A stretch of DNA of 14,005 bases from Candidatus Altiarchaeota archaeon (GCA_043804895.1 JAZDIN010000051.1:1-14005), one strand, 5' to 3'; positions 280 through 11,697 are shown, counted from the first letter of the stretch. The notes: generated from the letters alone by a model not told the origin. Made by a program: numbers and translations.

Positions 280-1473
280 CTAATCCTGTGGCCGATATTT
301 CCTGTAGTAGATGACAATCCACGCTACTATCAGGAGTATCGCAGGGGCGGCTATGGTGTAGAAGTTTATGTCGAAGTTGAATAGTGGCGTAGTGTAGTTC
401 CAGACTCTTATGGTAGTCTCTCGCACTGCGGTCCTCACACCCGCATATTCTGCCCACAGGCGGACCTTGTATTCTCCGGTTTCCGTTGGCTTATACGTGA
501 GGCTCGTGCTTTTGGTCGCGCCTTTCTCGAGGTATTCGTTCTTAGTCTCCTGGATGTGCGTGCTCTTCCCGTCTTTTATGAATTCTACCCTGAGTTTAGC
601 GTCTATTGGCATGTCTCCGGTGTTCGTGAGCTTCGCGTAGACTGTGACAGTCTCCCCTAACGTCATGTTGGTGGCTGATACTGAGGCGTCCTCGAGGACG
701 CCCTCGACTTTGACTGCATCGTCTTTGGCATCCAATGACACTATGTAGAATGATTCCATAGTGTTCCAGTATTCCCTCTCGTCCATCTCCACCCTCATCT
801 CCATGAGGTAGAGTCCGGGGGCCATGCCTGTGGAGCGGAGGTTGGTTGTGAACGTCTTCTTCGACTGGGGGTCAACGGATTCCGAGTTTATCACGCTCGC
901 GGAGTATGTGGTCTCCTTGTCGCGGCTTAGGGCTCTGAAGGAGACGGTCGGCTTCGCAGCGGTTGCAGCGTTGTTTTTCAGCGTTAACTCGGATTTTATC
1001 GGCTGCCCCTCCTTCGCACTAGCTACGGTAGTCTTGAGCACCCTCAGCCAGGAGCCTTCGGTGCCGAGGACCTCTACTGAAACTTTAACAGATAAACTTG
1101 TTTCCAGGCTCATGCCAGTGTAGCCTGCGGCCATGGATTTCGGCTTGGTGGTAAGTTGTATTCTCCCAGTGTATACTCCATTTGGCGTTGAATCCGGGAT
1201 GCTGACGTAGACTGGGATGTCATGTTGGCCATCAAGGACGAATGTATTGTCTTCGAACCTTATCCAATCCGCTATGTCGCCTGATTTTGAGAGCGTGCAT
1301 AGTAGGTTCCTGTCGGCCGTGCTGGCTGTCAGGTGGGTCCGGTACTCTCCGCCGCGCGTGGTGTTCTTAACTTCCAATGTGGCTGGGCTGACGCCAAGGG
1401 TTATGGCTTGCGCATTGGACGCTAGGAGGATAATCGTCGCCGTCAATAATATTCGTACGGGTTGTCTTTTCAT
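280..1473 (-). CDS. Type I membrane-anchored surface protein: signal peptide, DUF916/WxLIP-like domain, Ig-like domain, CARDB-like domain, C-terminal TM helix and basic tail
   Basis: 397 aa. Signal peptide ends AQA, followed by LGVSPATLEV and V.VSIPDSTPNGVYTGRIQL (DUF916-like). GETVTVYAKLTNTG...LTYKPTETGEYKV is CARDB-like. The C-terminus IAAPAILLIVAWIVIYY-RKYR is a TM helix plus basic tail. Starts 4 nt after the upstream stop. Confidence 0.88.
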   Translation of the reverse strand: MKRQPVRILLTATIILLASNAQAITLGVSPATLEVKNTTRGGEYRTHLTASTADRNLLCTLSKSGDIADWIRFEDNTFVLDGQHDIPVYVSIPDSTPNGVYTGRIQLTTKPKSMAAGYTGMSLETSLSVKVSVEVLGTEGSWLRVLKTTVASAKEGQPIKSELTLKNNAATAAKPTVSFRALSRDKETTYSASVINSESVDPQSKKTFTTNLRSTGMAPGLYLMEMRVEMDEREYWNTMESFYIVSLDAKDDAVKVEGVLEDASVSATNMTLGETVTVYAKLTNTGDMPIDAKLRVEFIKDGKSTHIQETKNEYLEKGATKSTSLTYKPTETGEYKVRLWAEYAGVRTAVRETTIRVWNYTTPLFNFDINFYTIAAPAILLIVAWIVIYYRKYRPQD

Positions 1474-1477
1474 AAGT

Positions 1478-3361
1478 CTACTCCTCTTCTGCCATCAGTG
1501 ACAGTGTACCGTTGCAGGTCCCGCCTACTCCGGACACCGGAATTTTAATCCTCCAGTATATTGGCTTTTCGCTCGAAGTACCGTCTAACGTCTTCCCAAG
1601 GTCGAAGTATTCCTTGAGGATGTCGTCGGTTTCGTCCTGGTCGTAGGTGAGTGCGAACATGCTATCATAGACTGTTAGTGTAGTATTGTGGTATTTGACT
1701 TGGCCGACGCCTATGGGGTCCCCGATTGTGCACGGGAGGTCGGTTCCGTTCGTTAACATGTCTTGGACGACGTTGCCGATGTTCTGTACTGTGATATTGT
1801 CCTCCCTGCTAGTCTCACCAAAGGTAAAGGTAGAGCCCCCCTCATCGGTTTTGAATATGAGACTGGGGTTTGTTATGTTGATGGCCAGGAGCGAGTTGAC
1901 TGTGAGGGGGTATGTGACGTTGTGGCCCCATAGGTCCTCGTCCCAGGCACTCATGTTTATCGCCCATTCATCTGAAGCGTTCGCGTAGTATGCGAGGTTG
2001 AATGAGCATTCTGCGTTCCCTGAGGGACAGCTGAAGGAGCAGCTGTCGTTGATGTAGACTGAGTTGTCATTAGGTCCTGAATCATGGGTTGCGGAATGGT
2101 TGTCCCACAGGACTGCCTTTACCAGGTTTATGTCAAGGCATCCGTCGTCATCAGACACTGTAGCGTTGTATGTGACGTTCTTCCAGCTGCCTGGATTCAG
2201 GACTATTCCAGTGTCGCCGTATATCGTGTGAACCACTGGAGGCTTGTTCAGTGTCGTGGATGTTGAGGTAGTAGTCGTAACACCGGTTGAGACGTTCAAT
2301 GTGACGTTGTTGCTGACTGTCCAGCCTCCGCGGCCGTCTGAGCCTGTGAAGACCGCGTATTCTATGCCGTACCAGTTGTTTATGGGTTGTATGTCTACTG
2401 TGTGGTCTGTGTCGTCTATGGTTAGGAGGACGTTTGGGTGGTCTGGGGAGGTTTGGAAGGTGAGAGTGTCAGCGTCAAGGTCCCAGAAGTAGTCGTCCAG
2501 GTCGAATGCGTCTGACAGGGTCTGGTTGCTGTACATGTGCTGTTGTCGTATCGTGTAGTTTATCTCAAGCTTCGGCGTTAGTGAGCTGTCTGTGGCGTTG
2601 CTGCTGTAGTACTGCCGGAGCGTATTGTCCTGCCCCTCCTCCCCTATAATTATGACTCCCTTGTTGTTGTCTATGCTCCCGACCCAGTTGGATGTTAGGT
2701 CTATGACGTTCCACGTCACCCAGCCTGCGAGCTCCACTGCGCGGTATGATGTTAGGGTGGGATCAGTTTTGAAAACCGCTACCCCCCCCTCATAGCTGAG
2801 TACCGTGCAGTCGTCGCAGTCCACGTCGTCTTTAAGTATCTTCACGCTCTGGAAGCTGAGGTTCCTGAGAGTCATCTTCCCTGTCTTGTTGACTGCAGTC
2901 ATCGTCGTAACGTTCAATTCGATATAGTTGAATGTGAGGTTCACGTCCCTGTCGAGGTTCAGGTTCGCAGTGTTCGTGAAGTCGACTGTAGGCTCGAAGA
3001 TGACGGTTGCGTTGACTGCGCTGAGGTTGAGGGTGAGCGCAGCCCAAGCGACTTCGCCTTTGATGCGGCTGTAGTTGAATATCCCGTAGGAGTCGACTAT
3101 CGTCGGCGGCTTGTTCACGAGCATCAAATCAAGCCTCCCATCCCCCTCATCAGAGACGTGAGGGTACATTCCGGCCCGCACGTTGTATGTGAGGGCTAGG
3201 CCGTCGGATTCCACTAGCGTGTTCCTGCGGACTCCTGAGTCGATGGCGTACTGTATGCTGTTGTTCACAGGCTCATTGAGCTCGGTGGAGGACGTCTGTT
3301 GTATGTTGAGCGCAAGGATGAATAATGCTGCCGCGGCAACCAGCCTAGAAACTCTTCCCAT
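1478..3361 (-). CDS. Secreted multi-domain surface glycoprotein (~627 aa): DNRLRE-like C-half, cadherin-like Ig, Thr linker, Ig-like domain, WxL/pilin-like C-terminal domain
   Basis: Start moved from 3469 to ATG 3361 (MGRVSRLVAAAALFILAL, a signal peptide), which removes the overlap with the upstream gene. Motifs: GWVTWNVIDL..W...NNKGVII...YYSSNA....PKLEINY; FDLDDYFWDLDADTLTF; TTTTSTSTT; C-terminal YWRIKIP..G.GGTCNGTLSLMA. Many N-x-S/T sequons and no C-terminal TM. Confidence 0.88.
   Translation of the reverse strand: MGRVSRLVAAAALFILALNIQQTSSTELNEPVNNSIQYAIDSGVRRNTLVESDGLALTYNVRAGMYPHVSDEGDGRLDLMLVNKPPTIVDSYGIFNYSRIKGEVAWAALTLNLSAVNATVIFEPTVDFTNTANLNLDRDVNLTFNYIELNVTTMTAVNKTGKMTLRNLSFQSVKILKDDVDCDDCTVLSYEGGVAVFKTDPTLTSYRAVELAGWVTWNVIDLTSNWVGSIDNNKGVIIIGEEGQDNTLRQYYSSNATDSSLTPKLEINYTIRQQHMYSNQTLSDAFDLDDYFWDLDADTLTFQTSPDHPNVLLTIDDTDHTVDIQPINNWYGIEYAVFTGSDGRGGWTVSNNVTLNVSTGVTTTTSTSTTLNKPPVVHTIYGDTGIVLNPGSWKNVTYNATVSDDDGCLDINLVKAVLWDNHSATHDSGPNDNSVYINDSCSFSCPSGNAECSFNLAYYANASDEWAINMSAWDEDLWGHNVTYPLTVNSLLAINITNPSLIFKTDEGGSTFTFGETSREDNITVQNIGNVVQDMLTNGTDLPCTIGDPIGVGQVKYHNTTLTVYDSMFALTYDQDETDDILKEYFDLGKTLDGTSSEKPIYWRIKIPVSGVGGTCNGTLSLMAEEE
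1481..1890 (-). other. WxL-like / pilin-like C-terminal beta-sandwich domain
   Basis: LAINI...LIF, ITVQNIGNV..D and a terminal YW.I.IP...G...GTL.L.A strand pair resemble WxL/CS1-pilin-like domain ends. It lacks a literal terminal WxL motif; adjacency to DUF916-like genes supports the call. Confidence 0.45.
2555..2764 (-). other. C-terminal half of a DNRLRE (CBM96-like) domain
   Basis: DPTLTSYRAVELAGWVTWNVIDLTSNWVGSIDNNKGVIIIGEEGQDNTLRQYYSSNATDSSLTPKLEINY matches the recalled GW..WDVT.LV..W....N.G......F.SSE......P.L.V.Y pattern. Confidence 0.75.
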
Positions 3362-3385
3362 AGGTAATAAAATGGGCTTTATTGA

Positions 3386-3397
3386 ATTAAATATCGG
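3386..3397 (-). promoter_or_regulatory. Putative archaeal BRE/TATA (CCGATATTTAAT) for the gene starting at 3361
   Basis: TTTAA begins 30 nt upstream of ATG 3361 in a 38 nt AT-rich intergenic gap. Confidence 0.5.
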
Positions 3398-3399
3398 CG

Positions 3400-3804
3400 C
3401 TATGGGGCTGGTATTACGTAGCTTGCGTTTCTGACTAGGACTTCCTGCATGCACGTGTACTCTGCGCACTGCTTTATGGCAGTCACGTTCAGCGAATTCA
3501 ACGGGTAGACCATATTACCTTGCGAGGTCTGAACACTGCAAACGGCCTGGCCGTCTTTCATAGCGCAGTATTTGTTAACCCACTCCTGGGGGGCGTAGTA
3601 TCTGTTGCAGACGAGGCCGTTGCACGCCCAGTACGTCTTATCCAGTCGCTCATCAGCTAACACTGGTTTATCGTATGTGACCTTCAAGTCCTTCGGAACC
3701 GTGCACTGCACCGACTGTTTCGCAGTGTTCACAGACACCAACAATGCTGCAAGAACGACAACAACTGTGACCAAGGCCACGATGGCGATGTTCTGGACTT
3801 CCAT
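3400..3804 (-). CDS. Small Cys-rich membrane-anchored or secreted hypothetical protein (~134 aa)
   Basis: ATG 3804 is preferred over the track's 3810. N-terminal hydrophobic helix IAIVALVTVVVVLAALLVSV, 7 Cys, sequons NVT and NAS. Fits cleanly between the neighbouring genes. Confidence 0.8.
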   Translation of the reverse strand: MEVQNIAIVALVTVVVVLAALLVSVNTAKQSVQCTVPKDLKVTYDKPVLADERLDKTYWACNGLVCNRYYAPQEWVNKYCAMKDGQAVCSVQTSQGNMVYPLNSLNVTAIKQCAEYTCMQEVLVRNASYVIPAP

Positions 3805-3824
3805 AACCAACCATTACGTATCCT

Positions 3825-3833
3825 AATATATAA
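3825..3833 (-). promoter_or_regulatory. Putative archaeal TATA box (TTATATATT) for the gene starting at 3804
   Basis: TTATATA begins 29 nt upstream of ATG 3804 and 6 nt after the TGA of the giant gene. Confidence 0.55.
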
Positions 3834-3839
3834 GTAAGC

Positions 3840-6800
3840 TCAGACGTAGTCTCCGCCTTCAATGTCCCATTGCACATCAGTTTGCCTATCCTCCCATGTT
3901 GTCTGGCTTTCATCCCAGGTGTTGGTCAGGTTGTAGGCTGTGTCCTTTATGCTGTATGAGCTGTTGTAGAGGTAGAGGCTGAGTATCGTCTGGTTGAGTG
4001 TCGCATTCGCTGGAATCTGTGTGGTGTTGAACCACAGTAGGCTGCGGAAAGAGTATGTGAGTTTACCTACTTTCAGCGTCCTGTCAACACAGTAAATGCA
4101 TGGTGGCAATTCACCCACCTCATCGTCTATGATGTAGCTGTCGTTCGCGCTCTCCTCCACAGGTTGGATGTTCCGGTAACCGAATACGGGGTTTGCGTTT
4201 CCAGGGGCCTCCCCGACCGTGAACATCCATTTTGTCGTGTTAGTGTAGAATCCTCCGTCTGTGGCGTTCACATACCACCAGTAGCTTCCGTTTTTGAGCC
4301 GGTAGAGGTCGAGTATCTCATCAGCTGAGAGGCTCCGATTCCAGACGGCGACCTCGTCGATGGAGCCGTTGAATTCGAAGGTTGAGATGTCTGGGCATCC
4401 GAAACATAATCTTCCTATCCCGATATTGTCTGTTGAATCGGCGAGGAGTCCCGTCCCGGTTGTGTCTGAGCCGCATTCTGCACCATTATGGTATAACCGC
4501 AGGATGATGCTGTCCCATGTCATCGCCACAAACTGCCACTCATTGAGGGATATTATGCTGGTGCAGGGAGCATACGTTCCAGTCCCATTTGATAGACCAT
4601 TTCCATGGATTACATGCCCTTCCAGCGCGTTATTTGTCGTGTTCCAGTATAGGCTGAACTGTCCTTCGATTTTTCTGTCCACGATCCTCGGGAAACTTGT
4701 TGAGGGTATGTATGGTTTAATCCAAGCTGAGACTGTCATGTTTTTTCTTTTGAGCACGTCCCCTGGGTTTGGTATGTGGATGTAGCTGTCTGTGCCGTTT
4801 AAGCTGAAAGCCATCCCGTATTTTCCGGTCTCGTTCGGTAGCGCGCCGGCCATGGCCGTGCCGTTGTACCCGTATCCTGAGTGGTCGTAGACCCATGTGT
4901 CGTTTTCCCCGTATTTGCTGTCGTTGTCGAGGTGGTAGAGCATTATCATGTCAGAGTCGTAGGTTGATGAGGCTGGTAGGGCTGTGATGTTGTAGTTGAC
5001 CCAGGTGTCGTTGTAGACTGTCTGGTTGTAGTAGACGAGTCTTGTCACGTCCGAGGAACTGTTGCCTGCGTATATCCATACCCCTAAGGTGTCGTTGTTC
5101 AAGTCTGCGACTGTGGCGTTGAGGATTCTGAACGTCTCAGGTGCTATGGACATGTGCAGTGGCGTCTGGAGTGTGACGTTCGGCGCTGTTGGCGCGCCGC
5201 CTCCGCCCCATTGTATGACGACGCCGGCTCCTATGGTGAACGTCCTCTGCAGGCTTCCTGTGCTCGTTTTCCCGTCTGACACGTTAACATTCCAATGGTA
5301 TATTCCGTCTGTGAGGTTTGTCCAGTCGTAGGTGACTTTGATGAGTGCTGGTGGTAGGCCGCGGGCGGTCTTCGCTAGGGCGTATGAGTCAGTCTCCTGG
5401 CTGTCGTGTTGTATGGCCCTCAGCCTTAGTGTGTATCTTCCGTCTTCAGGTAGTTCGGAGACGTTCCACGTGTATAGTACGCTGTCGGCTACTTCGCTGT
5501 ATCCTGTGTAGAGGAGGGTGAACTCACCATCTGCGCCGTATCCGTCCGCAACTGACAGCTCATACCTTGAGAAGTCAGTCCCCCTAGCAGTCCCAAGAAA
5601 CTGTATCAGGCCGCCTGTTGTGCCATTCATTGTATAGATCTCCGCTATGGGCGGGAGGGTGGTGGAGTTGAATATCCCCCTCAGGTTGACGCGGCCTTGT
5701 CCTTGTGTTAGTATGTCGTAGCCTAGGTCTGTTGCAGTCGATTTTAGGAGTGATTTAACCTCAGTCTGGTCGAGGTCACCCCAATTTTGGAGTAGAAGTG
5801 CTGCTGCTCCTGCGACGTGCGGTGCTGCCACGCTCGTTCCGGAGCGTGTGATGTGGCTTCCGTCAAGGCATAAGCTTCCCGGGAGGATGCTGTCCCACCT
5901 GGCTGAGCAGATGTTGACTCCAGGGGCTGTTATGTCAGGCTTCAAGAGCACTCCCGTGCCCCACTCCACGGGGCCTTTTGAGTTGAAGTCCGCGATTCTG
6001 TCATTCTTGTCTGATGCTGCGACTGTGATGGCCTTCCTTGCCGTTGCCGGGGATGTGATTGTACCAGTTCCTCCGCCGTTTCCTGCAGCAACGACGATGA
6101 CTATCCCGTTGTCTGCTGCGTTGTCGACTGATGTGGATAGGGGGTCGTCTGGGCCGCAGTACTGGCTGTATGTTCCGCAGCTTGTGCCTAGGGCAAGGAG
6201 GATTATGTCAGCATGGTCTGAGTAGTCTCCGTCACCGTTCGGGTCTGAGGCCTTCTCTATGGCTGCGAGGACGTCAGAGTATGAGCCGCTCCCGTCAGAC
6301 TTAAGGGCTTTGTATGCTAGGATGGTTGCGCCGGGAGCCACTCCCTTTAAGGCGCCGTCGCCTGCTGCTACTCCCGCCGTGTGTGTTCCGTGGCCGTTGT
6401 CGTCCATGGGGTCGCTGTCGTTGTTGACGAAGTCCCATCCTCCTGCGACTTTACATCCTGGGCCTAGGCATCCGCCAAGATCTGGGTGAGTGTAGTCGAC
6501 TCCAGTGTCTATCACCGCTATTGTGACGTTGCTGCCTGTTATTTCGTTATCCTCCGGGTCCCACAACTGCCATACGGTGTCGGCTCCAATCAACGGCACG
6601 GAGTCCATGAGCGTAGCATCCACCTTGTAGTTCGGGTATACGCTCTTCACCTGAGGCATATTCCTCAACTCCTCAGCCTCCTCTCTTGTTAGGTTCAAAG
6701 TCATCCCATTGAATAGACTGATGAATCTCTGTTTTATCCTCCTCCCATCCTTCAATGTTGGGATATTATCCTGGATGGCCCGGAGTGCGGTCTTTTGTTC

Positions 6801-9800
6801 GTCCAGGATTCTGCTTCTGGATAGTGCAGCGCTGTCAGGCAGCTGTTCTTTGAGGACGGTTATCTCATTTTTGAGGAGTACTTCGTCATATATCTTCACG
6901 CCCTTCTTCCTTGTCTTAACTTCCCTTTCTGTTATGTTCCTCATGATTTTCGCCCGCTCTTTCAGGATGTTAGGTTGGTGGAATTCGACGATGTAGCCTG
7001 AGATTTCCGGTTCCTCTACTGTTGAGACGTTAGTTGAAACGACGGTGTTGTAGAGCATCCTCTCCTCTGTCGCGTTCCCTCCTATGAACGAGACATCCAC
7101 TTGGTCTCCGTCAGCGTCAGAAAGGGATGCACTCAGTGTCACAAAGTTGCCGACTGAGGTGATGCCATCTGCTGGGGAGAGGAAAGATATCGTCGGCGGA
7201 TTGTTCATGCTGCACCATAAGGGATTTTGCGCTATCATTACATTCCCGTCAGCAGCGTCTGCTGTTTCGCCTGACCCTCCGCTTCCGTCGAATGAGATTG
7301 TGCTATTTTCTAGTGTGTCGCAGTATCCTATTGCAATCGAACCGCCTCCCCCTCCGGTTCCTCCGATGCTGTCTCCTCCGCTCACGTTCAATGTTTGGGC
7401 GAGCGTGATGTCCCTGGCTTCGACCGTTATCGCCCCGCCTGACCCGCCTACTCCTCCATTGACGTCAACTCCGCCGTATGCGTTCAATCCTGCAGTCACT
7501 TCAGCCTTACCCTTGTGCGCTGCCACAGTTATTGTCCCGCCTCCGTTGTTCACTGACTGGTCTGATGTCCCCGAAGATGCGGATAGGTCGCAGGTTACTG
7601 TGATGTCGGAGGCTGTAGAGTTCAATCTTATTATTCCGCCTCTGCCTCCGGAGCCTGTCTGGGAGTCTCCCCCTGTTACGTTAGCGCATCCCATATGTAT
7701 CGCGCCTGATGCTGTGAGCGTAATATCCCCCCCGGGTCCTCCGTTGTCGTACCTTGAGTAACTGCCTGATGCGGATACGTCAGCGACTGTGATGCTGTCC
7801 TTAGAGTGTATCATCACTTGGCCTCCTCCTTTACTAGCCTGGTTATTTGAGGCCCCTGACTTCGTGGATATGTGGTTGACGTCAACCCATGAGCCGGCTG
7901 TGATGGTCACTTTGCCTCCACTTCCTCCGCTGCCGCCTTCAGTGGGCAAGAGGTCCACATCGCCTCCGTCCGTGGTTATATATCCTGACACTGACGCTGT
8001 CTTGGATTGTATTAATACATCGCCTCCGTCTCCGCCGTCAAGCGAGATAGAATCTGAGGAGCAGTCTCCTCCACTTGTTATTATCCCCCCATCTATCCTC
8101 ACATTATCAGCCTTAACGCTGACTGCCCCACCGTCCGGTTCCTGGACTTCATATCTTCCGCTGAATAGTATGACCCTGCCTGTCGCATTCACGAGGCCTT
8201 CGGGGGTTACCGTAAAGTTCCCTGTGCTGTTGAAGTAGATGTTGGTTGAGGAGTTCTCGCCTGATTCGAGGAGGTTGATTGTGCCGTTGACTGTTATATC
8301 CTGCGCTGAGCATATGTAGCCTCTTTGTGTGCTATCGTACGAGCATAACGGGCTGTCTAGGATGTCGTCGATGCTTGTGAGGACGATGCTCTGCGGCAAC
8401 GTCGCGTTACTCCATTCGACTATGAGCGTCGGCTTCCCCCCTGCTGCACTTGATGAGGTTAGTGAAGCGTAGTCCGCTGGGTTGCTTTCATCGAGAGAGG
8501 ATAATCCAACCGAGAATATGTTCCCCGGGAGTCTCGCCTTCAGGTCCTTCCTACCCCTTGCGCCGAGGCGGAACGTCTTAATCCCTTTAGAGTCGCATTT
8601 GTTGTTGAGGTCATATCTTGTGCCGTTGCCTATCTCCTCGTATAGTCCGTTAGCATCGGATGTCAGCGCATAATATGTTCCTGTGTCGCCCATCTGGTTG
8701 ACTGCGCATGAGCATTGGGTGCAGCCTTCCTCCATCTGGCTTTCAACGTTGACCCTTAATCTGACGTCGGAGATGGATGCGTCATCAGGTATCCCGCTCA
8801 CGTTAAAGTCTATGAAGCTCCTGGATACCGTGTCCGAGTTGTTTCCTAGGGGGAGGATTAGCGAGTCAGTGACCATGCTCCCGCCGTCGCTGTCCCCGTC
8901 TAATGTGACGTTCCCGCCACCCAAAGACCATGTGGGGTCGACGACGACGGGGTATCTTGCGTTCTTCATGAACTTCTCATCCAAGGTCATCGTATACAGG
9001 TAGTCTCTGGACTCCCAGGATAGTTCATCAGACACTTTCCCGCGTCTGCCGCGTGCGTCGTACATGTAAGGCTGGGAGAACCCGAACACCCTGACGTTGT
9101 TCCTGTCGTAGAATCCGTACCCTCCCGCCTCCTCCTTGAGTTGGAGTTTGGCGAGGGTGAGAACGAACTCGAATCTCCTGGGTGCGCTGTCGTTGTTGAG
9201 GATTATCACCTCCTTAAGCCTCCTGGGGCCGACCGAGTATATGAGGTCTGAGGCGTTCCATATGTTCAGGTAGGCTATCGTGTCGCCGCTTGCGAGGGCT
9301 GGCACATTGTTCGCATCCTTGGGTGTGGACAGGACGTAGCCTGAGCCGACGCCAAACCTTAACGGCCCGGATGCTGAGCTGAAGTATGTTGCGTAGTCGA
9401 CGTCAGCTACCGAGTAGTCGAAGTCCTCCGTTACCTCAGGGATTATGTGAGTGTCATATTCCTTCCATGTTCCATTTTCGAGGTAGTTGAGGGGTTCCAT
9501 GCTTATCTCGGAGGTGAGTGACCCGTCTGTGTTGATGAAGCTTCTGATGAATGCGCCGGTTGTGTTGGCGTCGCTCACCCTCTTGTCAACGTACATCCTG
9601 AACGTCCTGTTGCCCGAGTATGGTAGGCGCCATCCGGCCCAGTCTACCAACCCGTCACTGTCGGCGTCCGTGAGTGATAGATTGTAAAGGGGGTCGTTGC
9701 TTAGGTCATAGAGTAATCCTCCGTCGTCCTCGAAGAGGACTATCCTGTTGCGTTCGACCTTCGGAACGTTCGAGTACGCTATGACGTCCTTGTATTCTGT

Positions 9801-11636
9801 GACGCTCTCGACTGCGATGTTCTTCACCCACAAGTCCTCAGAATCGTATGAGACGTTCTCTTTCTTGGTGGGTCCGGGGGTGTCGTAGTACATGGTGTAG
9901 TTGCGTCCTCCAGTGAACACGCTCTGATACTGCCTATCCTTTGAACCTGACTCAGTAGTATCTGTGATGTTGAGCGTTTCCCCAGTCTTGTCATCGACTA
10001 TTCGAAGGTCCTGCGCAAATATGGGAGCAGTTACAACAACCTTGAAACTCAACTGCTTTGAATACCTTGTCGTTATCCTCGTGTACCATGAAACCGGGCT
10101 GTCAACGACCGCAGACCCCGGGTATGTCATTCCGCTATAGTCCAGGAAGTAGTCTAACACGCTCACATTGACTCCTGCGTAGAGGCCGGAGTGGCCTGCC
10201 CAAAAGGTGACTACGCTGTCGTTCTCCTTGAAGTCGACAGTGAACGGAACCCAGTTGAGGCAGTGGAAAGTCAGATAGTCGAATTCAGTGCACTCTGATA
10301 TCATAGTGACATCCCCCCTCTTCCTCAACGTAACAGTCATGTTATCGAACTCTAATTCAGGCGTCAACGCCACCACCCCAGTGGCCACGTTCGAGTCGTT
10401 GACGTCGTCAAAGACTGCGTTGATGCTCTCAGGCGTCCTCCTCAACCCATAAATCACAGCCTCTGAGGGGGATATTTGTGGTGCTGGCTCCTCAAGGTAT
10501 TTTGCCCCACCCCCAACTGCCGGGGCTTCAGTAGGCGAGCTAACTACATAAGGTATTGTGTTCGTTGAAGGCTTAGAGCTGAGTAGTAAAGTTACATTCC
10601 CCCCCTTTTGGCTCACCTCATAGTGGCCGAGGGGATTGTTATCCTTATCGGTGACTGACACTGCCAGGTCTGATATCCCAGCCATCGAATAATTTATACT
10701 CCCCCTCACGTTGCTCAGGTATTCGGCTTTTTCTAGGTGCAGTACCGTCCTGCCTCCCACTTCGGCGTTCAATATCAAGTCTTTAGAGATGTTGGTGAGC
10801 TCGCAGGATTCAGCGCATGCGTTCTCGAACATGAACTTCGGGTTGTAGAACAAACCAGGCTTGAACGCCCAACCGCCTTTCCTGACGAAGTACGTGGAGT
10901 TCCCCTCCTTCAGGTTTATGTCAGCGTAGACTACCCTGGCTCCGACGACGTTCTTATCTTCGATGATGGCAGCGCCGTAAGATAGGTAGTACGGGTCATC
11001 CCAGTTTTTGTATTGCACCGGTACTAGGCCGTATAAGAGGCAGCATGTTTCGCTGCCGTAACATACGGTGGTGATGTTGCCTGAGGAGGTTGAGTAAACC
11101 TGCCATAACGTGCACAGGTTGTTTTCCTTAGGAGTGAAGGCGAACGTGCTACCCTTAACACTATAGTCTATGGAGGAGTAGTAATATTCTCTCCCGTTAT
11201 CGTCAGCATCCCATATGCTCCCTGAAGCGTAATCCAATGTTGTGGTGACCTCATCTGAGGCGTCGGAGCTCGAATTCATGAGAGCCACTATCTCAGATAC
11301 GTTCTCATCCAGTATCGGCTTCACTTCAGTCAACATGCTACTGTTGAACACGAGAATCCTCCTATCCCCATCGATGACGTAGACGGCCGCATCATCGCCT
11401 CCTGTCGCGTAACCGCTCAGTCTCAGAGACGCCGGAGCAGCAGTCAAGGAAGCATTGACTGTGACGTTGCCGTTCACATCCAAGTCCAGAATGTCAGTGT
11501 AGCGCATCGGCCCGGACACCGCCATCCCAGTCAAACTGGGATTCAGGAAGTATATGGCGGCCATCGCGGAGGCGACAAGCGCCACCAGTATTAACGGCGT
11601 GTTACCCCCATTCTCAGCCCTCACGGTAAGTGCCAT
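3840..11636 (-). CDS. Giant (~2600 aa) secreted mosaic surface protein with S8 subtilisin-like serine protease, LamG, DNRLRE-like, Ig-like and Gly-rich beta-helix regions
   Basis: Uninterrupted 7.8 kb ORF; first ATG at 11636 (start uncertain, TTG 11642 and GTG 11624 are alternatives). N-terminal hydrophobic helix PLILVALVASAMAAIYFL is followed by NPSLTGMAV. S8 motifs VIDTGVD, HGTHTAG, AAGN and GTSVAAPHVAG; LamG motifs TVSAWIKP, WQFVAMTWD and FNGSIDEVAVWNRSLS. Confidence 0.95.
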   Translation of the reverse strand: MALTVRAENGGNTPLILVALVASAMAAIYFLNPSLTGMAVSGPMRYTDILDLDVNGNVTVNASLTAAPASLRLSGYATGGDDAAVYVIDGDRRILVFNSSMLTEVKPILDENVSEIVALMNSSSDASDEVTTTLDYASGSIWDADDNGREYYYSSIDYSVKGSTFAFTPKENNLCTLWQVYSTSSGNITTVCYGSETCCLLYGLVPVQYKNWDDPYYLSYGAAIIEDKNVVGARVVYADINLKEGNSTYFVRKGGWAFKPGLFYNPKFMFENACAESCELTNISKDLILNAEVGGRTVLHLEKAEYLSNVRGSINYSMAGISDLAVSVTDKDNNPLGHYEVSQKGGNVTLLLSSKPSTNTIPYVVSSPTEAPAVGGGAKYLEEPAPQISPSEAVIYGLRRTPESINAVFDDVNDSNVATGVVALTPELEFDNMTVTLRKRGDVTMISECTEFDYLTFHCLNWVPFTVDFKENDSVVTFWAGHSGLYAGVNVSVLDYFLDYSGMTYPGSAVVDSPVSWYTRITTRYSKQLSFKVVVTAPIFAQDLRIVDDKTGETLNITDTTESGSKDRQYQSVFTGGRNYTMYYDTPGPTKKENVSYDSEDLWVKNIAVESVTEYKDVIAYSNVPKVERNRIVLFEDDGGLLYDLSNDPLYNLSLTDADSDGLVDWAGWRLPYSGNRTFRMYVDKRVSDANTTGAFIRSFINTDGSLTSEISMEPLNYLENGTWKEYDTHIIPEVTEDFDYSVADVDYATYFSSASGPLRFGVGSGYVLSTPKDANNVPALASGDTIAYLNIWNASDLIYSVGPRRLKEVIILNNDSAPRRFEFVLTLAKLQLKEEAGGYGFYDRNNVRVFGFSQPYMYDARGRRGKVSDELSWESRDYLYTMTLDEKFMKNARYPVVVDPTWSLGGGNVTLDGDSDGGSMVTDSLILPLGNNSDTVSRSFIDFNVSGIPDDASISDVRLRVNVESQMEEGCTQCSCAVNQMGDTGTYYALTSDANGLYEEIGNGTRYDLNNKCDSKGIKTFRLGARGRKDLKARLPGNIFSVGLSSLDESNPADYASLTSSSAAGGKPTLIVEWSNATLPQSIVLTSIDDILDSPLCSYDSTQRGYICSAQDITVNGTINLLESGENSSTNIYFNSTGNFTVTPEGLVNATGRVILFSGRYEVQEPDGGAVSVKADNVRIDGGIITSGGDCSSDSISLDGGDGGDVLIQSKTASVSGYITTDGGDVDLLPTEGGSGGSGGKVTITAGSWVDVNHISTKSGASNNQASKGGGQVMIHSKDSITVADVSASGSYSRYDNGGPGGDITLTASGAIHMGCANVTGGDSQTGSGGRGGIIRLNSTASDITVTCDLSASSGTSDQSVNNGGGTITVAAHKGKAEVTAGLNAYGGVDVNGGVGGSGGAITVEARDITLAQTLNVSGGDSIGGTGGGGGSIAIGYCDTLENSTISFDGSGGSGETADAADGNVMIAQNPLWCSMNNPPTISFLSPADGITSVGNFVTLSASLSDADGDQVDVSFIGGNATEERMLYNTVVSTNVSTVEEPEISGYIVEFHQPNILKERAKIMRNITEREVKTRKKGVKIYDEVLLKNEITVLKEQLPDSAALSRSRILDEQKTALRAIQDNIPTLKDGRRIKQRFISLFNGMTLNLTREEAEELRNMPQVKSVYPNYKVDATLMDSVPLIGADTVWQLWDPEDNEITGSNVTIAVIDTGVDYTHPDLGGCLGPGCKVAGGWDFVNNDSDPMDDNGHGTHTAGVAAGDGALKGVAPGATILAYKALKSDGSGSYSDVLAAIEKASDPNGDGDYSDHADIILLALGTSCGTYSQYCGPDDPLSTSVDNAADNGIVIVVAAGNGGGTGTITSPATARKAITVAASDKNDRIADFNSKGPVEWGTGVLLKPDITAPGVNICSARWDSILPGSLCLDGSHITRSGTSVAAPHVAGAAALLLQNWGDLDQTEVKSLLKSTATDLGYDILTQGQGRVNLRGIFNSTTLPPIAEIYTMNGTTGGLIQFLGTARGTDFSRYELSVADGYGADGEFTLLYTGYSEVADSVLYTWNVSELPEDGRYTLRLRAIQHDSQETDSYALAKTARGLPPALIKVTYDWTNLTDGIYHWNVNVSDGKTSTGSLQRTFTIGAGVVIQWGGGGAPTAPNVTLQTPLHMSIAPETFRILNATVADLNNDTLGVWIYAGNSSSDVTRLVYYNQTVYNDTWVNYNITALPASSTYDSDMIMLYHLDNDSKYGENDTWVYDHSGYGYNGTAMAGALPNETGKYGMAFSLNGTDSYIHIPNPGDVLKRKNMTVSAWIKPYIPSTSFPRIVDRKIEGQFSLYWNTTNNALEGHVIHGNGLSNGTGTYAPCTSIISLNEWQFVAMTWDSIILRLYHNGAECGSDTTGTGLLADSTDNIGIGRLCFGCPDISTFEFNGSIDEVAVWNRSLSADEILDLYRLKNGSYWWYVNATDGGFYTNTTKWMFTVGEAPGNANPVFGYRNIQPVEESANDSYIIDDEVGELPPCIYCVDRTLKVGKLTYSFRSLLWFNTTQIPANATLNQTILSLYLYNSSYSIKDTAYNLTNTWDESQTTWEDRQTDVQWDIEGGDYV
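3843..4178 (-). other. N-terminal half of a DNRLRE (CBM96-like) domain, ending at the stop codon
   Basis: NIQP....ANDSYI...LKVG....FRSLLWFNTTQIPANATLNQTILSLYLY...AYNLTNTWDESQTTW......WDIEGGDYV, then TGA. Confidence 0.8.
4299..4976 (-). other. LamG / concanavalin A-like lectin domain
   Basis: LYHLDN, DHSGYGYNGT, GKYGMAFSLNGTDSYI, MTVSAWIKP, WQFVAMTWD..ILRLYHNG, FNGSIDEVAVWNRSLSADEI. Confidence 0.9.
5685..7000 (-). other. I9-type propeptide plus S8 subtilase catalytic domain
   Basis: Triad Asp at 6507-6509, His at 6390-6392, Ser at 5832-5834; oxyanion Asn in AAGN. Propeptide motifs YIVEF, FNGMTLNL and VKSVYPN, then LMDSVPLIGA. No PA domain insertion is visible. Confidence 0.93.
7228..8135 (-). 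repeat. Gly-rich protein-level tandem repeats (about 9 units of ~33 aa), probable beta-helix stalk
   Basis: Recurring GGxGG-x-[VI]-x-[IL]-x-[AS] units: DGGAVSVKA, GGDGGDVLIQS, GGSGGKVTITA, KGGGQVMIHS, GGPGGDITLTA, GGRGGIIRLNS, NGGGTITVAA, GGSGGAITVEA, GGGGGSIAIG. Confidence 0.8.
8412..8900 (-). other. Complete DNRLRE-like domain
   Basis: SRSFIDFNVSGIPDDASISDVRLRVNV ... FSVGL ... LTSS ... KPTLIVEW. Confidence 0.65.
8931..9551 (-). other. Module resembling the N-terminal region of Gram-positive WapA/Rhs-type secreted proteins
   Basis: F.N.DGS.T.EI...P.NY...G.W...DT; Y..IW...DL.Y......LKE.IIL....AP..F.F; F....PYMYDA.G; YPVVVDPT directly followed by a DNRLRE-like domain. Recognised from memory only. 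Confidence 0.6.
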
Positions 11637-11697
11637 ATTCAAAAAGTCAAGACTATAAGATATTTGGCATTACCTAGTAAAATAACCGAGAATTAGG

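Follow-up and report, generated by a model that had tools for sequence, protein, structure and literature searches.

The metagenome-assembled genome (MAG) of a Candidatus Altiarchaeota archaeon (GCA_043804895.1; 1.58 Mb in 71 contigs, 88.7% complete) contains a contig of 14,005 bases (JAZDIN010000051.1; C51), analysed over its whole length and referred to here as the window, in which a β-sandwich domain of the DNRLRE/CBM96 type is cut between two genes. A giant surface protein ends with a C-terminal tag that holds the N-terminal half of the domain (N-half), and the C-terminal half (C-half) is found in a secreted protein of 627 amino acids (aa), called here the adaptor, which is encoded downstream. 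The cut, the conservation of the cut, the existence of a fused relative and the one-to-one occurrence of the two halves are established in this work, and from there we infer the export of both products, their assembly in trans and the role of a small gene located between them. An old and conserved gene fission inside the DNRLRE/CBM96 sandwich, whose two exported products rebuild the domain in trans, is the reading that we consider likely. Genomes, loci or contigs, and proteins are designated, where they have to be told apart, by labels beginning with G, L and P, respectively, G000 being the genome of the window.

A domain cut in the middle of its fold

An earlier note on this DNA, made from the sequence alone, had proposed that the giant protein stops in mid-domain and that the missing half resides in the protein downstream, and profile searches on each fragment bear this out by their complementary coverage. 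The NCBIfam profile DNRLRE_dom (NF033679; 164 positions) is matched by residues 2522-2588 of the giant only along positions 19-93 (whole-protein E 2.1e-13; 50.7 bits, over the 34-bit cut-off) and by residues 196-268 of the adaptor only along positions 94-164 (E 3.7e-8). The same truncation of the giant appears with the Pfam families CBM96 (23-95 of 164) and Disaggr_repeat (11-99 of 179). Neither chain covers the whole profile of about 164 positions and the pair together spans positions 19-164; in four other genomes, the tag and the C-half cover positions 1-99 and 102-162, 12-93 and 94-164, 2-89 and 94-164, and 2-103 and 99-164, respectively.

All the relevant genes of the window are carried by the minus strand (Table 1). 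The giant ends ...WDIEGGDYV in the middle of the domain and stops directly after this motif with a TGA codon at 3842-3840, the segment NANPVFG lies at 4199-4179, DPTLTSY starts at adaptor residue 200 (base 2764) and PKLEINY ends with Y269 at base 2555, and the giant and the 627-aa protein are read in different frames, all of which agrees with the earlier description. The gap between the halves also has the content that had been described, namely a complete small gene and two TATA-like stretches (recognized by eye), followed by a signal-peptide-like N-terminus. Two arguments of the earlier note, on the other hand, have to be given up. Firstly, DPTLTSY had been taken as part of the DNRLRE half, but the strand equivalent to PTLTSYRAVE ends the adaptor-type N-terminal domain in proteins of G013, G050 and Woesearchaeota that have no DNRLRE half; therefore, DPTLTSYRAVE is probably the last strand of the adaptor N-terminal domain and lies outside the DNRLRE half, and it is absent from the predicted interface described below. 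Secondly, the spacing from GGD to GW in the joined sequence, which had been offered as typical of the family, relied on this same strand.

The adaptor N-terminal domain, for which Pfam gave no match, also stands alone in other proteins of DPANN archaea, which have no DNRLRE half: a Thr-rich linker comes after it in a 594-aa frame of G013, and other domains come after it in a protein of G050 and in a 790-aa protein of Woesearchaeota. Since it occurs alone in these proteins, the domain is no hidden N-half. This undescribed module is found repeatedly among the surface proteins of DPANN archaea, with matches in those of Altiarchaeota, Woesearchaeota and Pacearchaeota (L013 1438-3219; L046 5299-7668; L011 1492-3822). 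Structural comparison with the ESM Atlas returned for this domain only leads under the bar, all of them autoproteolytic β-sandwiches similar to the Nup98 autopeptidase (S59), GPS and ZU5 (template-modelling score up to 0.57). Autoproteolysis at its last strand was considered and rejected, because the Ser/Thr after a hydrophobic residue is not conserved (Gly in P0007, Leu in P0011).

The position of the cut is conserved. When the last 121 residues of the giant were used as a HMMER query against 1.84 billion representatives, 399 matches were obtained at E up to 0.001, and among the 150 matches listed, each of which represents a cluster at 50% identity, eight (the window's own included) have the tag at the extreme C-terminus. 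Seven of these end with PGGDY plus one variable residue and the eighth (P0027) ends with PGGD. In six-frame searches, the tag ends with APGGDYV in a 2588-aa frame of G001, with SAGGDYV in an 815-aa frame of G016 and with APGGDYT in an 896-aa frame of G003, and the copy in G006 is interrupted by a contig end. The truncation is thus not confined to the genome of the window, as the same cut residue is found in those eight of the 150 listed matches and in five genomes of two genera. The alignment of the tags (A2; 10 rows, 38-50% identity to the window) contains 22 invariant columns, and a sequence search of the PDB with this profile returned nothing at E up to 1. The cargo that precedes the tag varies, and includes giants with Peptidase_S8 (S8) and LamG domains (P0013, which is the window giant beginning at the ATG at 11636, and P0018), LamG giants without S8 (P0029 and P0040), FG-GAP proteins (P0017, P0043 and the frames of G016 and G003), and short LamG proteins (P0020 and P0027).

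The other half is conserved as well. The adaptor family comprises 10 members with 49-58% identity to the window protein (search of 5.8 billion clusters), all of which keep the C-half; the four scanned against NCBIfam (the window adaptor, P0004, P0009 and P0011) match the DNRLRE profile only from positions 94-100 on, in agreement with the six-frame searches. Within the C-half, 17 of the 59 columns are invariant and the mean pairwise identity is 0.59, compared with 0.59, 0.60 and 0.45 for the N-terminal domain, the cadherin-like domain and the C-terminal module of the adaptor, respectively, while the corresponding value for the tag in four giants is 0.44 versus 0.27-0.50 in 200-residue windows elsewhere. 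Since the half-domains are as conserved as their folded neighbours, neither of them looks like a decaying remnant. An artefact or a recent decay, i.e., a chimeric contig of the MAG or a gene that is being lost through a nonsense mutation, might be suspected from the fact that the window is a whole 14-kb contig of an incomplete MAG (88.7%) assembled in 71 contigs. Nevertheless, misassembly and decay are both contradicted by independent assemblies that share the stop position and the layout (G016, G006, L048, L050, G001 and G003), with both genes intact and conserved at 38-59% identity, and such an explanation is barely conceivable.

A relative in which the domain is unsplit still exists. G010, which belongs to another genus of the same family, encodes a 1276-aa homologue (P0163) whose residues 663-830 align with the tag profile, ending at GGDY (hhalign probability 96.5%, E 8.4e-10), and whose residues 851-1272 align with adaptor residues 214-624 (BLASTP E 5e-41, 29% identity), with about 20 residues between the two matches. 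The homology of P0163 rests on hhalign and BLASTP because NCBIfam is blind to its DNRLRE domain, returning 0 families for this protein. As these genomes hold many complete DNRLRE domains in a single chain, it is the split condition that is derived. Both fused and split orthologues, whose existence in related genomes the earlier note had proposed to look for, have therefore been found (P0163 and five split genomes), and the proposal that one ancestral gene was split within the domain with both products kept is supported by the fused form, by the shared cut residue and by the conservation of both halves. The size of about 3000 aa that had been suggested for the ancestral gene is unsupported, since the sole fused form found has 1276 aa.

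Co-occurrence of the two halves is strict in the genomes that were searched. A single strong tag match and a single C-half-only match are present in each of the five split genomes. Of the 61 genomes searched, no others yielded full-length adaptor orthologues (E <= 1e-188) or C-terminal tag matches, and further genomes gave weaker, partial matches elsewhere in the giant and adaptor queries. Genome and locus counts are not independent, because the split genomes are related (two genera of one family). Two other N-half-only matches were rejected as cases of the split. The first, in the genome of the window itself (C25:32-274; L004), runs off the contig end after profile position 93, and it belongs to another secreted protein that starts with a DNRLRE domain of a different subtype, without NxxPxFG. 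The second, in G010 (C42), is a complete but diverged DNRLRE domain.

Among the seven loci whose sequence extends 1 kb or more upstream of the adaptor gene (L047, L049 and L051 were too short and were left out), five have the tag gene directly upstream of it, namely the window, G016:C8, G006:C5, L048 and L050. A small gene lies between the halves in four of these five linked loci, where the halves are about 0.5-1 kb apart. The tightest form of the split is that of L050, a metagenome contig in which the tag stop and the adaptor start overlap by 8 nucleotides (ATGAGTAG; 640-665) with no small gene between them. In G001 and G003, the tag and adaptor genes are located on different contigs with clearly other neighbours. 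The small gene has homologues at E <= 1e-20 only in the same five of 61 genomes (one further match is weak, E 0.009) and is always beside one of the halves, with the tag gene in G003 and with the adaptor gene in G001. This arrangement bears on the possibility that recoding (read-through, frameshift or another bypass) still makes one polypeptide, so that the split would exist at the DNA level only. Whereas the stop/start overlap of L050 could in principle permit a frameshift, the window and three other loci have a whole conserved gene and about 0.5-1 kb between the halves, and the genes are unlinked in two genomes; moreover, joining the two frames would leave a signal peptide and a domain of 180 residues enclosed within the fold. 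No intein or Hint family was found among the Pfam and NCBIfam matches of the giant, the small open reading frame (ORF) and the adaptor at E up to 1. Recoding is very improbable because of the intervening gene and the unlinked copies.

Predicted assembly of the halves in trans

The ancestral order of the fissioned gene would have been body, DNRLRE domain, cadherin-like domain and C-terminal module, an order still found in one chain in the sister genus. According to the mechanism proposed here, the gene was cut in the loop after GGDY, and the cut would have brought in a stop codon, a new start followed by a signal peptide and an additional N-terminal domain and, in most cases, a small gene for a membrane protein, leaving the upstream product with a tag of about 120 residues that contains the N-half, and the 627-aa protein with the C-half. 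Both products would be exported separately and, outside the cell, the strands of the tag would most likely be inserted between those of the C-half to form one rebuilt sandwich, while the first strand of the tag probably also completes the neighbouring cadherin-like domain. In this way, the ancestral architecture would be restored non-covalently, with the distal domains of the adaptor hung on the giant protease.

Structure prediction supports binding between the tag and the adaptor. The tag was co-folded with adaptor residues 28-365, which include on purpose the adaptor's own N-terminal domain, using alignments of 10 rows each, and the scores were 0.83, 0.82 and 0.83, as compared with 0.02 for the best of three controls. 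The co-fold mark is reached by 58 of 80 solved complexes and by two of 110 mismatched pairs, counts that hold only roughly here because the alignments used were our own shallow ones of 10 rows. Contacts agree by at least 95% between the runs, and the mean predicted local distance difference test (pLDDT) of the tag is 81 with the adaptor versus 48 when paired with an unrelated replacement, that of the adaptor being 79 with the tag versus 70-71 with unrelated partners. The predicted interface comprises, on the adaptor, residues 211-272 as its core, a few N-terminal domain residues (171-190) and the cadherin-like segments 286-300 and 340-351 and, on the tag, residues 8-22, 25-28, 45-102, 123 and 125. 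The closest predicted pairs (adaptor/tag) among the 345 contacts, 217/80, 265/80, 238/60 and 265/18, are those to be expected if the strands interleave and the first and the last of them are adjacent. Modelled alone with AlphaFold2 from 10-row alignments, the whole adaptor has a mean pLDDT of 47.9, with residues 18-373 under 50, and the tag has a mean pLDDT of 42, values that are affected by the shallow alignments and, for the tag, non-discriminating. The co-fold favours binding between the tag and the adaptor, and reassembly by fold complementation, which the earlier note had suggested, gains support from the margin over the controls; the opposite outcome, i.e., an adaptor fold closed by itself with no interface between the chains, is not what the model predicts, since an interface appears even in the presence of the adaptor's own N-terminal domain.

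The main competing explanation, which accepts the fission as real and conserved and which we regard as unlikely, is that no complementation takes place in trans, the C-half being packed in cis on the adaptor N-terminal domain and the half on the giant being a self-sufficient remnant or binding another partner, e.g., the small Cys-rich membrane protein. Packing in cis would fit the position of the extra N-terminal domain, which is always directly before the C-half in the adaptor family, as well as the proximity of its residues 171-190 to the rebuilt domain in the model, the unlinked genes of G001 and G003, and the small gene staying with the tag gene in the latter and with the adaptor gene in the former. 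However, the N-terminal domain stands alone elsewhere, and it is the tag, not this domain, that pairs in the co-fold with the adaptor strands 214-217, 237-238, 251-252 and 265-266. Moreover, the tag is poorly modelled without the adaptor, an argument weakened by the shallow alignments, and the tag and the C-half occur one-to-one in five genomes, neither being found in the other 56 searched.

Assembly in trans may involve a second domain. The adaptor segment that follows the C-half is related to cadherin-like families (PF17892 and PF17963 were compared): the window adaptor matches Cadherin_5 only along positions 33-97 of 98 (E 0.12; 12.7 bits versus a cut-off of 26.5), and the homologue P0004 passes Big_9 (24.6 versus 23.6). 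Coverage starts at profile positions 16-33 in three of the four adaptor homologues scanned and at position 4 in P0006, while a complete cadherin-like domain in P0164 starts at positions 1-2 with NRAPVL. In the window adaptor, an A-strand of its own of the NxxPxx type (positions 1-6) is not matched, and there is no room for it in cis, since the last DNRLRE strand is followed after only some four residues by the next cadherin-like element; the candidate strand is found in the giant. Its motif has N8, P11, F13 and G14 invariant in the tag alignment, and N..P.FG[YW] is present in 10 of the 164 proteins compared, which are all nine tag-bearing entries (eight clusters, the window giant being counted twice as P0001 and P0013) and the fused P0163. 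The motif is missing from a stand-alone DNRLRE protein of G023, which is complete and has no cadherin-like domain after it. Furthermore, the motif (tag residues 8-22) and the cadherin-like domain (adaptor residues 286-300 and 340-351) both lie within the predicted interface. It is thus plausible that NANPVFG represents the first strand of the adaptor cadherin-like domain, which would constitute a second, nested split.

Several observations weigh against the fission with trans-assembly that we favour. The co-fold result may reflect likeness or memory, because the fold has been solved as a single chain (PDB 7VBO), and split-domain halves tend to pass a co-fold test by likeness. In addition, the adaptor C-half match taken alone is marginal, with borderline scores of 33.6 bits (hmmscan) and 34.8 bits (six-frame search) at a cut-off of 34, and the adaptor gave no match to Pfam CBM96. 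Finally, the two genes have parted in G001 and G003, as described above, and all the split cases come from two genera of one family.

A more far-reaching reading, which we advance tentatively and with less than even confidence, is that of a natural extracellular tag-and-catcher of archaea. A portable half-domain of about 120 residues, carried by exchangeable cargo such as S8 giants, FG-GAP proteins and LamG proteins, would dock on a dedicated secreted receptor and complete two nested folds at once, namely the CBM96-type sandwich and, via the invariant NxxPxFG strand, the cadherin-like domain that would hold the sandwich as an insert. In such a system, guarding or guiding the open half until docking would fall to the small Cys-rich membrane protein and to the N-terminal domain that was added.

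Relation to known systems and significance

Gene fissions usually fall between domains, and a conserved cut across a small β-sandwich, in proteins that require separate export, would depart from this pattern. In donor-strand complementation, as operated by chaperone-usher pili and archaeal surface filaments, one strand is given and identical or similar subunits are polymerised. As in these systems, extracellular proteins are predicted here to be joined by strands given to a neighbour's incomplete β-sandwich, whereas the product would be a one-to-one heterodimer that rebuilds a domain ordinarily contained in a single chain.

The CBM96 fold (NF033679; Pfam PF24517) has been solved as module TM6-N4 of the alginate lyase Dp0100 (PDB 7VBO), a single chain that binds polysaccharide in an extended groove (PMC9971899). 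The two halves described here jointly cover most of the profile of this family (positions 19-164) and the fused relative has the domain in one chain; unlike the known members, which are single-chain β-sandwiches, the whole fold is present here in no single protein. A parallel is provided by the baseplate of phage Tuc2009, in whose crystal structure a C-terminal β-hairpin of 25 residues of BppU completes a sheet of domain 2 of BppA (PMC4742702). There, the C-terminal extension of one protein supplies strands that complete the partner's sandwich and dock it, and the same is predicted here for the tag. The systems differ in that the tag would donate, in a cellular archaeon, about half of a 160-residue fold (tag residues ~45-102 touch the partner in the model) instead of the 25-residue hairpin of the phage, in that the half that receives it is internal to the partner and preceded by a signal peptide and an additional domain, and in that a second domain may be completed at the same time. 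Within the same phylum, a study on Altiarchaeales describes split genes for pheT and a diphthamide synthase subunit (PMC4975002), in which a gene is likewise divided between two conserved ORFs that need not be neighbours. Those genes encode cytoplasmic housekeeping enzymes, in contrast to a presumably exported surface protein that is cut inside a small β-sandwich and to which a new signal peptide and a new domain have been added at the cut.

Literature searches, in which supplements were not covered, returned no description of a split DNRLRE/CBM96 domain or of this system of Altiarchaeota. What is new here is the cellular archaeal host, the predicted donation of about half of a 160-residue fold, the location of the receiving half inside its partner and the possible double completion of nested domains. 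If trans-assembly is true, two unfolded halves that are separately exported find each other outside the cell and fold together, which would make them a natural, genetically encoded, non-covalent joining pair of about 120 + 60 residues with a possible use as a docking tag, and would offer a concrete, testable picture of the way in which these uncultured archaea put together very large surface structures out of components that are secreted one by one. Should binding fail, the locus would remain a clear case of fission within a domain for which a fused relative survives.

Other features of the locus

Table 1. Coordinates of the features of the window, counted from its first base (nt, nucleotides)
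Feature	Position	Strand	Basis
Upstream ORF, 768 aa, open at the contig end	11698-14004	-	ORF scan
Giant surface protein, 2600 aa from TTG (2598 aa from ATG at 11636)	3840..11642 (coding 11642..3843)	-	ORF, Pfam, NCBIfam
C-terminal tag of the giant, residues 2482-2600: NxxPxFG[YW] motif and DNRLRE/CBM96 N-half, ending GGDY-x	3843..4199	-	profile 19-93 of 164; match itself 4079-3879
NANPVFG, candidate A-strand given in trans to the adaptor cadherin-like domain	4179..4199	-	motif conservation, predicted interface
TGA stop cutting the DNRLRE domain after GGDYV	3840..3842	-	sequence
TATA-like A/T stretch (by eye), ~22-29 nt upstream of the small-gene ATG at 3804	3826..3833	-	
Small gene, 136 aa from TTG, in-frame ATG at 3804	3400..3810 (coding 3810..3403)	-	ORF
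TATA-like A/T stretch (by eye), ~25-33 nt upstream of the adaptor ATG at 3361	3386..3394	-	
Secreted adaptor, 627 aa: signal peptide, N-terminal domain, DNRLRE C-half, cadherin-like domain, Thr-rich linker, C-terminal module	1478..3361 (coding 3361..1481)	-	
Adaptor N-terminal domain, residues 30-210	2732..3274	-	
Adaptor orphan C-half of DNRLRE/CBM96, residues 211-269	2555..2731	-	profile 94-164
Adaptor cadherin-like/Big_9-like domain, residues 270-360, without its own A-strand in cis	2282..2554	-	
Adaptor C-terminal module, residues 375-627	1481..2239	-	
CARDB-like protein, 397 aa: signal peptide, C-terminal membrane anchor	280..1473	-	

The product of the small gene, which contains 8 Cys, combines a membrane helix at its N-terminus with a Cys-rich part of about 100 aa, and gave no match to a known family in Pfam or NCBIfam and no usable match in the ESM Atlas. 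This small Cys-rich membrane protein could serve as an anchor, assist the open half-domains as a chaperone or form a third subunit. The 768-aa ORF upstream of the giant has no Pfam match at E up to 0.1.

In the giant, an N-terminal hydrophobic anchor or signal is accompanied by Inhibitor_I9 and Peptidase_S8 (residues 1604-1983; E 1.7e-56) and by Laminin_G_3 (2282-2443). A long Gly-rich repeat region at ~7200-8100 (minus strand) precedes the protease, and a second partial DNRLRE-like match (profile 21-65, E 7.6e-4) lies at 8721-8852 on the same strand; the orthologous giants of G001 and G006 have a full internal DNRLRE domain in that pre-protease region.

The C-terminal module of the adaptor (about 250 residues, ending ...YW.I.IP.SGVGG.C.G.L...) is also the C-terminal part of many large proteins of related genomes, with more than 15 places matching about adaptor residues 345-624, and may be a general anchoring or pairing module. 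The CARDB-like gene is located directly 3' of the adaptor gene, and its homologues have the same position in G016, G001, G003 and L047-L050; genes for CARDB-like membrane proteins are also found 3' of the unsplit homologue in G010, so that in all these inspected loci a gene of this membrane-anchored type follows the C-terminal module.

Another module, C.G...FT..EC......GLTC....DY.[IV]SGL, ends the large protein encoded upstream of the FG-GAP tag proteins in G016 and G003 (L035 1-2346; L036 2668-6000), and the longer adaptor homologues P0006 and P0008 have the same module as an additional domain behind their signal peptide, which hints at further shuffling, or at a second junction, in these loci.

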